From NCBI RefSeq assembly GCF_008065095.1, contig NZ_CP042911.1, forward strand, positions 8,850,001 to 8,882,000: a DNA stretch of 32,000 bases. The letters run 5' to 3'. The notes under the pieces are model-generated. The model saw only the letters and a program-made list of their open reading frames with translations. It had not been told where the DNA came from and did not search any database. This document shows positions 20,984 to 22,016 of the stretch, piece after piece. Position 1 is the stretch's first letter. Every line of letters starts with the position of its first letter. Origin of the DNA: Gemmata obscuriglobus (GTDB lineage: Bacteria > Planctomycetota > Planctomycetia > Gemmatales > Gemmataceae). A program made the translations under genes and the position numbers.

Positions 20984-22016
20984 GAACCGTCACCTTCAAA
21001 TGTCCGCCGCCGCCGAGCGGGCCTGACGACACCTGCGAACCGAGTTCACCGGGTGGGCTTGGCGGACACCAATCCTTCATAACCACTGTATTGTTGTCTG
21101 CGTCACAGGCATCAGCAAGAGGATCGCGAAAATCCCCCCCCGTGCCGACTACTTGCACAACTCCCGTGTTTACACCTTGTGGTAGTTCCAGCAGTTCGAT
21201 TTTCTCCGCTTTCGTACCAAATGGAACTACCAGCAAAGAGTTCCTGTTCGTGAAGCGAAACGAGCCGCGCCAGCATCAACAACCCCAAACGATGACAAAA
21301 CAATACTTTACGCCCCAATCTACTGCCGCGAGCGTTCACAATACCAGCGGACGTCTGCAACTCGTATTCGGTTTCATGCCGGTGGTGCGTGGGTAGCGAC
21401 CGCCCAGCTCCGGACCAGTCTGACGCCAGCAAATGTCCAGCCGCCACCCCATGCGTCTCAGTCGGCTGGGGACCCACAGCCTCAATACGCGGCTCACGTT
21501 CCAGCAGCGATCGAGTTGTCTCTGCGGCCAGGATGCCACAGCCCCAAATGAGGCCAGCAGTTGACTCCCCCGAAAGAGAGGGGAACGCCTCACCAAACAA
21601 CAAGCCAGATGAGCCAGTGTCTCATGAGCGACGGCTCTACTCACACTCCGAGTTGCCGCTACCCTCACAAATGGCACGCGAGCAGTTCCGTGTTTCACGT
21701 CGGGCCATTTCAGTGCCGTCCGCTGACGCAGACGCTTCGACCGGAGCCGGAATTACCGATTGAACGGTTTGGGTCAGCGGGTCAAGTTAAATCCAGCCGC
21801 TTCAAGTTCGCGCGGCTTTGGTAATCGGCTGTGAGATCTGAGATGCCACCCGCCCGCATCAGCAGGCGGGTGGCGCACACGATTGACGAACTTGAAACTA
21901 CTGGAATCCGAATCCGTGGCACGGTGAAGCACAGAACCGATCTTGAAATGGCACGACGGCAAAAAGCTCTCGCCTTTTGCCGTCGCAGTTCCGACTTTAC
22001 CGGCGTTGCGGCGAAA
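20984..22016. other. About 1-kb lower-GC segment between secY and adk with no convincing ORF
   Basis: I counted 31-32 G+C per 60-nt row in rows 21061, 21241, 21301 and 21781, against 42/60 in adk row 20701. Track ORFs here overlap each other on both strands and are Arg/Ser/Pro-rich. The one I codon-checked has G/C-poor third positions. Local hairpins: GGTAGTTCCA (21181-21190) / TGGAACTACC (21221-21230); CCACCCGCC (21846-21854) / GGCGGGTGG (21865-21873). Confidence 0.6.
21954..21985 (-). terminator. Candidate hairpin terminator/stabiliser 31 nt after the secY stop
   Basis: Perfect 11-bp stem CGACGGCAAAA (21954-21964) / TTTTGCCGTCG (21975-21985) with a 10-nt loop. On the minus-sense RNA it is followed by UGCCAUUUCAAG, which is only a weak U-tract. 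Confidence 0.35.

Follow-up and report, generated by a model that had tools for sequence, protein, structure and literature searches.

The long secY-adk gap of Gemmata obscuriglobus: a putative terminator, lineage-specific filler and a conserved promoter motif

The secY-adk locus

In a 32,000-nt stretch of the genome of Gemmata obscuriglobus (contig NZ_CP042911.1, positions 8,850,001 to 8,882,000; hereafter the window, in whose own numbering positions are given), the genes secY and adk, which are encoded, as is every gene of the window, on the minus strand, are set apart by a gap of 1033 nt (20984-22016). In many other bacteria (e.g., Bacillus subtilis), secY, adk and map are read within a longer ribosomal-protein cluster. 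An earlier note, drawn up from the sequence alone, had singled out this gap as a compositionally deviant and apparently non-coding insert, and its figure for the distance between the two genes is confirmed by the coordinates of the open reading frames (ORFs). The length is exactly the same in three independent assemblies, and the window encodes the same Adk protein as Gemmata obscuriglobus UQM 2246 (GCA_000171775.1). The gap is by far the longest non-coding stretch of the window, where all the others measure no more than about 330 nt. Read from secY to adk, it holds a terminator-type hairpin, a long filler that includes an insert we call E1, and a putative promoter followed by the predicted leader of adk (Table 1). 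The three hairpins that the earlier note had listed were all recovered in an inverted-repeat search.

G+C makes up 57.6% of the gap and falls to near 52% at 21100-21400; the window has 67.3% and adk about 66%. The remaining intergenic stretches of the window, when pooled, come to 60.4% (range 48-70%). The description of the gap as compositionally deviant is thus correct when it is set beside coding DNA and fails when it is set beside other intergenic DNA. Since its G+C content is normal for the non-coding DNA of this genome, the composition is no evidence of a foreign origin, and we rejected a foreign origin argued on these grounds.

Table 1. Features of the secY-adk gap and of its flanking genes, in the order in which they are read (GC3, G+C fraction at third codon positions; RBS, ribosome-binding site)
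Feature	Position	Strand	Description
secY	22017-23579	minus	520-aa ORF including stop codon; GC3 0.93; Pfam SecY at the identical locus
Conserved secY 3' module	21946-22016	minus	71 nt, 93% identical to G. algarum; holds hairpin 21954-21985
Direct repeat, copy 1	21946-21954	minus	GTGCCATTT; candidate target-site duplication
E1	21678-21945	minus	268 nt, G. obscuriglobus-specific, non-coding, highly self-complementary
Direct repeat, copy 2	21669-21677	minus	GTGCCATTT
Stub	21617-21668	minus	~50 nt, homologous to the G. algarum sequence directly after its single GTGCCATTT
B1 filler	21442-21616	minus	Shares no detectable homology with the corresponding ~215 nt of G. algarum
Homologous block	21367-21441	minus	75 nt, about 85% identical to G. 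algarum, z 8.2; 11-nt indel within
B2 filler	21212-21366	minus	No homology in G. algarum; lowest-GC part of the gap (~51%)
Hairpin	21180-21232	minus	11-nt arms, 100% complementary; 31-nt loop
Putative adk promoter	21090-21118	minus	-35 TTGCTG 21113-21118, 17-nt spacer, -10 AACAAT 21090-21095
Predicted adk 5' leader	20984-21089	minus	~100 nt; start ACAGTGGTTATGAAGGATTGGTGT (21066-21089) and RBS GAAGGTGA (20990-20997) conserved
adk	20279-20983	minus	234 aa; Pfam ADK, ADK_lid
tRNA-Ile, anticodon UAU	20173-20245	minus	Lies in the adk-map gap; found by ARAGORN and by Rfam (tRNA, 66 bits)

The junction in related genomes

Loci of relatives were fetched via homologues of adk, which gave 11 relatives with secY next to adk in addition to the window; the promoter described below was counted over 13 loci. 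The secY-adk gap measures 783 nt in G. algarum JC717 (L084; Adk 94% identical), 486 nt in L002, 324 nt in L088, 315 nt in L086, 257 nt in L085, 213 nt in L004, 208 nt in L096, 198 nt in Gemmata sp. SH-PL17 (L092), 196 nt in Frigoriglobus tundricola (L093), 135 nt in L003 and 32 nt in the distant planctomycete L071. The range across the 11 relatives is therefore 32-783 nt, with about 135-325 nt in most Gemmataceae, and the outliers in length are the pair G. obscuriglobus and G. algarum. In two further Gemmataceae, adk is not adjacent to secY at all. In L001 (2725-4001), a metagenome-assembled genome (MAG) of Fimbriiglobus sp., adk is preceded by a 396-aa ORF and, upstream of that, a 339-aa ORF, which from their sequences look like an M20-type peptidase and FabH. 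In L094 (1-3001), a 1070-aa gene in divergent orientation precedes adk. Taken together, the broken adjacency in these two loci and the gap lengths in the others imply that the junction is a real boundary in this family.

The alignment with G. algarum is unbroken at 94.3% identity over 3.3 kb up to position 21946 of the window and again over 4.9 kb from position 21148, and these two stretches take in every other intergenic region. The comparison of the junction among relatives that the earlier note had proposed gives a clear outcome, in that the ends of the gap are conserved and its center is not; to judge from these alignments, the center differs from that of the sister species by discrete events of insertion, deletion or replacement.

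The conserved ends: a terminator-type hairpin and a promoter motif

The end next to secY carries a hairpin at 21954-21985 (CGACGGCAAAAGGC-GAGA-GCTTTTTGCCGTCG), whose 14-nt arms are 93% complementary and form a stem of 14-15 bp, with a predicted folding energy of -31.2 kcal/mol (z -3.45). A strong hairpin lies within 90 nt past the secY stop codon in 11 of the 11 loci where secY is adjacent, and the sequences of these hairpins differ. The GC-rich stem-loop of an intrinsic terminator is thus present, and in five loci (L003, L096, L092, L093 and L085) it is followed by a run of T. The position of the hairpin and its conservation suggest that it would mark the 3' end of the transcript. In four of the loci (L092, L093, L096 and L003) the promoter motif comes almost directly after the hairpin, which implies that the ancestral arrangement was a terminator and a promoter placed back to back.

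At the other end, the motif cc(C/T)C-TTGCTG-N17-(G/A)ACAAT is found upstream of adk in 12 of the 13 loci, with a spacing of exactly 17 nt throughout. Among the 12 loci the hexamers vary as TTGCTG, TTGCGG or TTGGCG in the -35 position and as GACAAT, AACAAT or GAGAAT in the -10 position, and the sequence of the spacer is variable. The motif stays with adk even in L001 and L094, where the neighboring gene is not secY, and in the window it is the sole match to TTG-N16-18-nAnnnT on both strands of 20901-22100. Conserved -35 and -10 hexamers at a distance of 16-18 nt are what is expected of a sigma-70-type promoter, and a fixed spacing of 17 nt with a freely varying spacer is the classical signature of one, so that the motif is probably active as a promoter. 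With the hairpin in 11 of 11 loci and the hexamers in 12 of 13, the comparison lends support to one of the candidates in the earlier note, namely an internal module of terminator and promoter that makes adk, the tRNA and map a separate unit.

The transcription start of adk would then lie just downstream of the -10 hexamer. The first 24 nt of the predicted leader and its ribosome-binding region are kept in nine loci of the Gemmata group, and the middle varies in sequence and in length. The ribosome-binding-like site that the earlier note had assigned to adk is indeed there, 6 nt upstream of the ATG. We rejected a riboswitch-like fold common to the leaders, given a consensus fold of -2.2 kcal/mol and a compensatory change in no more than one predicted pair. 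All nine loci of the group (the range L084-L096 and the window) share the initial ~24 nt past the -10 hexamer, where the consensus is ACnGnGGTTGTGAAGGAT.GGTGT. Since this motif holds AAGGA followed by GTG, an operator, a start-proximal signal and a tiny upstream ORF are all conceivable; checked by eye, the frame downstream of the GTG is not conserved in length. Of the hairpin at 21180-21232, which lies upstream of the promoter, only the promoter-proximal arm is common to G. algarum.

The filler between the ends

The center of the gap amounts to 797 nt in G. obscuriglobus and to an equivalent 549 nt in G. algarum, and the two match in one short block only. In secY, adk and map, the two species still agree at 78-84% of the four-fold degenerate sites, which implies that point substitution cannot have erased the homology of the center, and that insertion, deletion or replacement did so. 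For the B1 block, the global alignment with the equivalent G. algarum sequence is no better than shuffles (z 0.10) and there are 5 near-diagonal 6-mer matches where chance would give 5.3; for B2 there are 0 where chance would give 3.6, with weak similarity only at its 3' edge. Both blocks fold no better than shuffles, the z scores of B1 being about 0 to +1.5. An inversion of B1 between the species was ruled out, there being no reverse-strand match, and so was a relationship of B1 or B2 to E1, where a fraction of 0.07-0.65 of the shuffles scored at least as high. The identity of the 75-nt block that the species share is about that of the synonymous sites, so that no constraint need be invoked for it. 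The earlier note had named unconstrained evolution of the segment in relatives as an outcome that would tell against its view, and for the central part this is essentially what the comparison yields.

The insert E1

One discrete difference from G. algarum is E1, which sits 9 nt past the stem of the putative terminator. A 9-bp sequence, GTGCCATTT, is present in perfect form at both E1 junctions and as a single copy at the empty site of G. algarum. When 277 nt are taken out (one copy of GTGCCATTT and the 268 nt of E1), the gap shrinks to 756 nt against the 783 nt of G. algarum and collinearity is restored, the junction then reading GTGCCATTTGTGAGGGTAGCGG... as compared with GTGCCATTTGGAGGGTAGTGG... 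in G. algarum. Terminal inverted repeats (TIRs), GATCGGTTCTGTGCTTCAC and GAGCAGTTCCGTGTTTCAC, lie at 21924-21942 and 21680-21698, that is, 2-3 nt inside the junctions. They are imperfect, with 15 of 19 positions matching in their 19-nt cores and a total extent of about 28 nt if a gap is allowed. The TIR pattern is seen twice where 0.08 occurrences would be expected, and the score of the TIR alignment, 13, is reached by 0.16% of shuffles and by 0.7% of random 268-nt windows. Between the TIRs, E1 is a nest of inverted repeats, including an inner GC hairpin at 21845-21874 with 13-nt arms (92%). Compared with shuffles, E1 folds much more stably on either strand (z -5.8 and -4.8), as expected of an inverted-repeat element at the level of DNA.

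A small size (roughly 50-500 bp) without coding capacity, TIRs, and a flanking duplication with an empty site are among the features by which a miniature inverted-repeat transposable element (MITE), a non-autonomous element of the DDE type, is recognized, and these are found here, with the limit that a deletion at microhomology gives the same picture of duplication. Multiple dispersed copies are a further defining trait of MITEs, whose TIRs are also those of an autonomous insertion sequence that supplies the transposase. On balance, we lean toward E1 being a transposon-derived insertion, and its form is probably that of a MITE-like element, known here from one copy. In the Joint Genome Institute (JGI) metagenomes, the pattern formed by the pair of TIRs gave 0 matches; the single-TIR pattern gave 35 single matches, no different from chance, and the best two of them (L106 and L116) represent one coding region with a 30-nt match. 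In the literature on the Gemmata transcriptome, on intergenic regions and on MITEs we found nothing relevant and no mention of E1. E1 has no sequence relative in the collections searched, and at most it adds one member to a class already known.

The alternative would be that the 277-nt segment is ancestral and was lost in G. algarum through recombination between the 9-bp repeats, so that E1 would be a self-complementary piece of old spacer. A deletion would account just as well for an arrangement of repeat, segment and repeat facing one repeat, a second copy of E1 is absent from all the data searched, and in L085, the closest outgroup, the entire central region is missing, so that it gives no clue to the ancestral state. 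However, a random deletion endpoint would predict neither inverted repeats 2-3 nt inside both junctions nor the strong folding of the segment, and we regard the deletion as clearly less likely than the insertion.

The sequence of the E1 site, CGTCGTGCCATTTCA, which comprises the 3' half of the terminator stem, the 9-mer and two further bases (21954-21940), reappears in inverted form at 21712-21698 with one mismatch. The target of the 9-bp duplication, CGTCGTGCCATTTCA, resembles an inner part of the element's own inverted repeat (CGTCGGGCCATTTCA). The inverted copy just inside the right end of E1 may mean that the target resembles the end of the element, or it may be a trace of the origin of the segment.

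Coding and RNA alternatives

The gap is non-coding. Whereas the real genes of the window have a GC3 of 0.81-0.93, the ORFs of the gap all fall at 0.51-0.63, with flat values over the three codon positions, and in a sliding frame plot the frame signal is lost from about 21000 to 21950. Seven ORFs of the gap were without a match in Pfam at E<=10, the 15 six-frame open segments of at least 35 aa, run as one concatenated query against 5.8 billion proteins, returned nothing at E<=10 and no match to themselves, and the gene callers applied to the three assemblies called no gene within the gap. The ORF from TTG 21236, which the earlier note had described as unlike the genes of the host, has a GC3 of 0.51 within its gap part and does overlap adk out of frame. 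That the gap encodes a small protein of atypical codon usage, the note's small gene of foreign usage, seems hardly credible in view of these values. ORFs with ATG, GTG or TTG starts are present, but they have no homologues, including in the sister species with its unrelated sequence at this place, and the sole shared block carries indels that are not multiples of three. A decayed protein-coding gene, pseudogene or foreign cassette that formerly stood between secY and adk is scarcely better placed, and we consider it very improbable. The length of about 800 nt would suit a small gene and overlapping ORFs of 100-163 aa run on both strands, but long ORFs are expected by chance at 58-67% G+C, no residual periodicity in GC3 is left, the protein and Pfam searches were empty, and none of the relatives has a gene at this position. 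Nor did the central 797 nt have a match to plasmids or phages in a blastn search in distant mode, and the gap, compared by blastn with the remainder of the window and every fetched locus, matched only pieces of G. algarum. Of the decayed foreign insertion proposed in the earlier note, what stands is that about 800 nt are lineage-specific and that 268 nt of these are transposon-like; the foreign composition does not stand, and of a pseudogene, as one form of that insertion, no remnant is detectable.

A further alternative is that the central part is a lineage-specific regulatory RNA acting on the operon, either as a small RNA or as a long structured extension of the 3' untranslated region of secY or the 5' untranslated region of adk. 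The first ~300 nt past secY do fold far better than shuffles (z down to -5.6 in 150-nt windows, and -5.8 for the 296 nt past secY), the 75-nt block is kept in G. algarum, and over the whole gap the sense strand is 68 kcal/mol more stable than the antisense strand. Yet the structured part folds about equally well on the opposite strand and is missing from the sister species, the center has fold z scores of about 0 to +2, and the energy difference between the strands fits the excess of G over C in the sense strand (GC skew). The 75-nt block is conserved no better than synonymous sites and is broken by an 11-nt indel, the adk leader has no conserved fold, and the adk promoter motif is the only promoter-like motif present. 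Rfam gave no match in the gap at the gathering score for the whole window or at E<=5 for 20700-22300; these scans returned only the tRNA and one chance match to a miRNA model inside secY. A regulatory RNA thus appears improbable, and the structured non-coding RNA suggested in the earlier note is not borne out, the central sequence being absent even from the sister species.

Interpretation

Considering these findings, the most parsimonious interpretation, which we think likely, is that the gap is made up of a terminator, functionless filler and a promoter spacer. The ribosomal-protein unit, of which secY would be the last gene, would end at the terminator-type hairpin right after secY, and adk would be the first gene of its own unit (adk, tRNA-Ile(UAU), map and so on), driven from TTGCTG-N17-AACAAT about 100 nt before its ATG. 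In the lineage of G. obscuriglobus and G. algarum, the small space between terminator and promoter would have been filled with 550-800 nt of lineage-specific DNA, and in G. obscuriglobus this filler would include E1 and two blocks that were swapped entirely for other sequence when compared with the sister species. Between terminator and promoter the DNA is probably untranscribed and unselected, which would allow insertions to be tolerated and the interval to grow in this lineage. The filler is most likely without a function of its own and would be tolerated owing to its place between transcription units.

Several points weigh against this interpretation. The hairpin of the window has no U-tract, its stem being followed by UGCCAUUUCAAG, so that in G. 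obscuriglobus it fails one of the defining features of an intrinsic terminator, and a terminator consensus scan of the window did not call it. The generic promoter consensus scan likewise did not flag the adk promoter, because this has 7 of 12 consensus positions and the threshold was 9 of 12. With regard to E1, the significance of the TIRs is moderate (p about 0.002-0.007), no second copy was found in the 32-kb window, the 133 fetched loci, plasmids, phages or JGI metagenomes, and the 9-bp repeat at its junctions would be equally expected from a microhomology-mediated deletion in G. algarum. The replaced blocks are similar in length across the two species (about 175 and 215 nt for the one, about 155 and 200 nt for the other), an odd pattern that "junk" leaves unexplained. 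Moreover, that the hairpin terminates, that the motif is an active promoter and that E1 came by transposition are all things we infer from sequence.

If the interpretation holds, it defines for the Gemmataceae where the ribosomal-protein/secY unit would end and where the adk-tRNA-map unit would start. It would also provide an example of a well-conserved planctomycetal housekeeping promoter (ccCC-TTGCTG-N17-GACAAT), of help to annotators and to those who build genetic tools for a phylum whose promoters are poorly characterized, and it flags a candidate MITE in Gemmata; nothing in it suggests that a gene, an RNA or a mechanism of a novel kind is present. A bolder extension can be envisioned in which the gaps between terminators and promoters of this operon are recurrent landing sites for small mobile elements in Planctomycetes, E1 being the first of a multi-copy MITE family, B1 and B2 further independent insertions at these sites, and the palindrome between rplO and secY (see below) a second mobile family. 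We offer this as speculation and consider it unlikely.

Comparison with known systems

Bacterial MITEs are represented by, e.g., Correia/NEMIS in Neisseria, ERIC in enterobacteria and RUP in pneumococcus. Like these, E1 is small, non-coding and intergenic, with TIRs, a short flanking direct repeat, a self-complementary sequence, a precise empty site in the sister species and a position beside a terminator. Unlike them, it has been seen once, its TIRs are imperfect (15/19), no partner insertion sequence or transposase is known for it, and it shows no similarity to anything in the collections searched. The gap as a whole resembles a boundary made of a terminator and a sigma-70-type promoter in having a stem-loop after the last gene, a -35 of TTGnnn and a -10 of nAnAAT at 17-nt spacing, and positions that are conserved throughout the family, with a variable stretch between the hexamers. 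It differs from a plain boundary of this kind in that the hairpin of G. obscuriglobus is without a U-tract and in that the signals are ~800 nt apart, not about 10-60 nt. Palindrome families of the repetitive extragenic palindrome (REP) and REPIN type have been reported in many phyla, including Planctomycetes, and REPs are 20-40 bp long and high in copy number, most of them being tagged at one of their ends with GTAG or CGTC (PMC3733652). The GC-rich palindromes in the spacers of this operon, i.e. the inner hairpin of E1 and the 86-nt palindrome between rplO and secY, are similar to these, whereas E1 as a whole, with its 268 nt, its TIRs and its flanking duplication, is not.

Other features of the operon and the window

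The rplO-secY spacer (99 nt) consists almost entirely of one near-perfect 86-nt palindrome (23583-23668) with a ~37-bp stem and the core GGGGCGTGAGCCCC on both arms. It folds at -85.8 kcal/mol (z -10.9) and has no match in Rfam. The palindrome occupies the same place in G. algarum (L084, 1572-1657), and a clearly related one is found directly after secY in a distant Planctomycetaceae MAG (L004, about 3795-3885) and not in the other Gemmataceae loci. It looks like a mobile family of the REP or MITE kind inside an essential operon.

A typical bacterial SecY has about 440 aa. In all the Gemmata loci SecY is 513-520 aa long, and the alignments of the distant relatives L003 and L071 begin at residues 56-58 of the SecY of the window. 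Part of this surplus may be an N-terminal extension, the start codon used here being putative.

Most bacteria read AUA by means of a lysidine-modified CAU tRNA. The tRNA-Ile(UAU) is present in the adk-map gap of nine of the 11 Gemmataceae loci checked and absent from Gemmata sp. SH-PL17 (L092) and L004. An unmodified UAU tRNA-Ile has been characterized in Mycoplasma mobile, which is without tilS (PMC3575796).

Downstream of the ribosomal genes, on the minus strand at 1-11541 of the window, lies a polyketide cluster resembling polyunsaturated fatty acid synthases, whose Pfam labels describe a 552-aa NMO/PfaD-like protein, a 2238-aa protein with the domains KS-AT-ACP-KR-DH and a ~2283-aa protein that carries KS and FabA domains.

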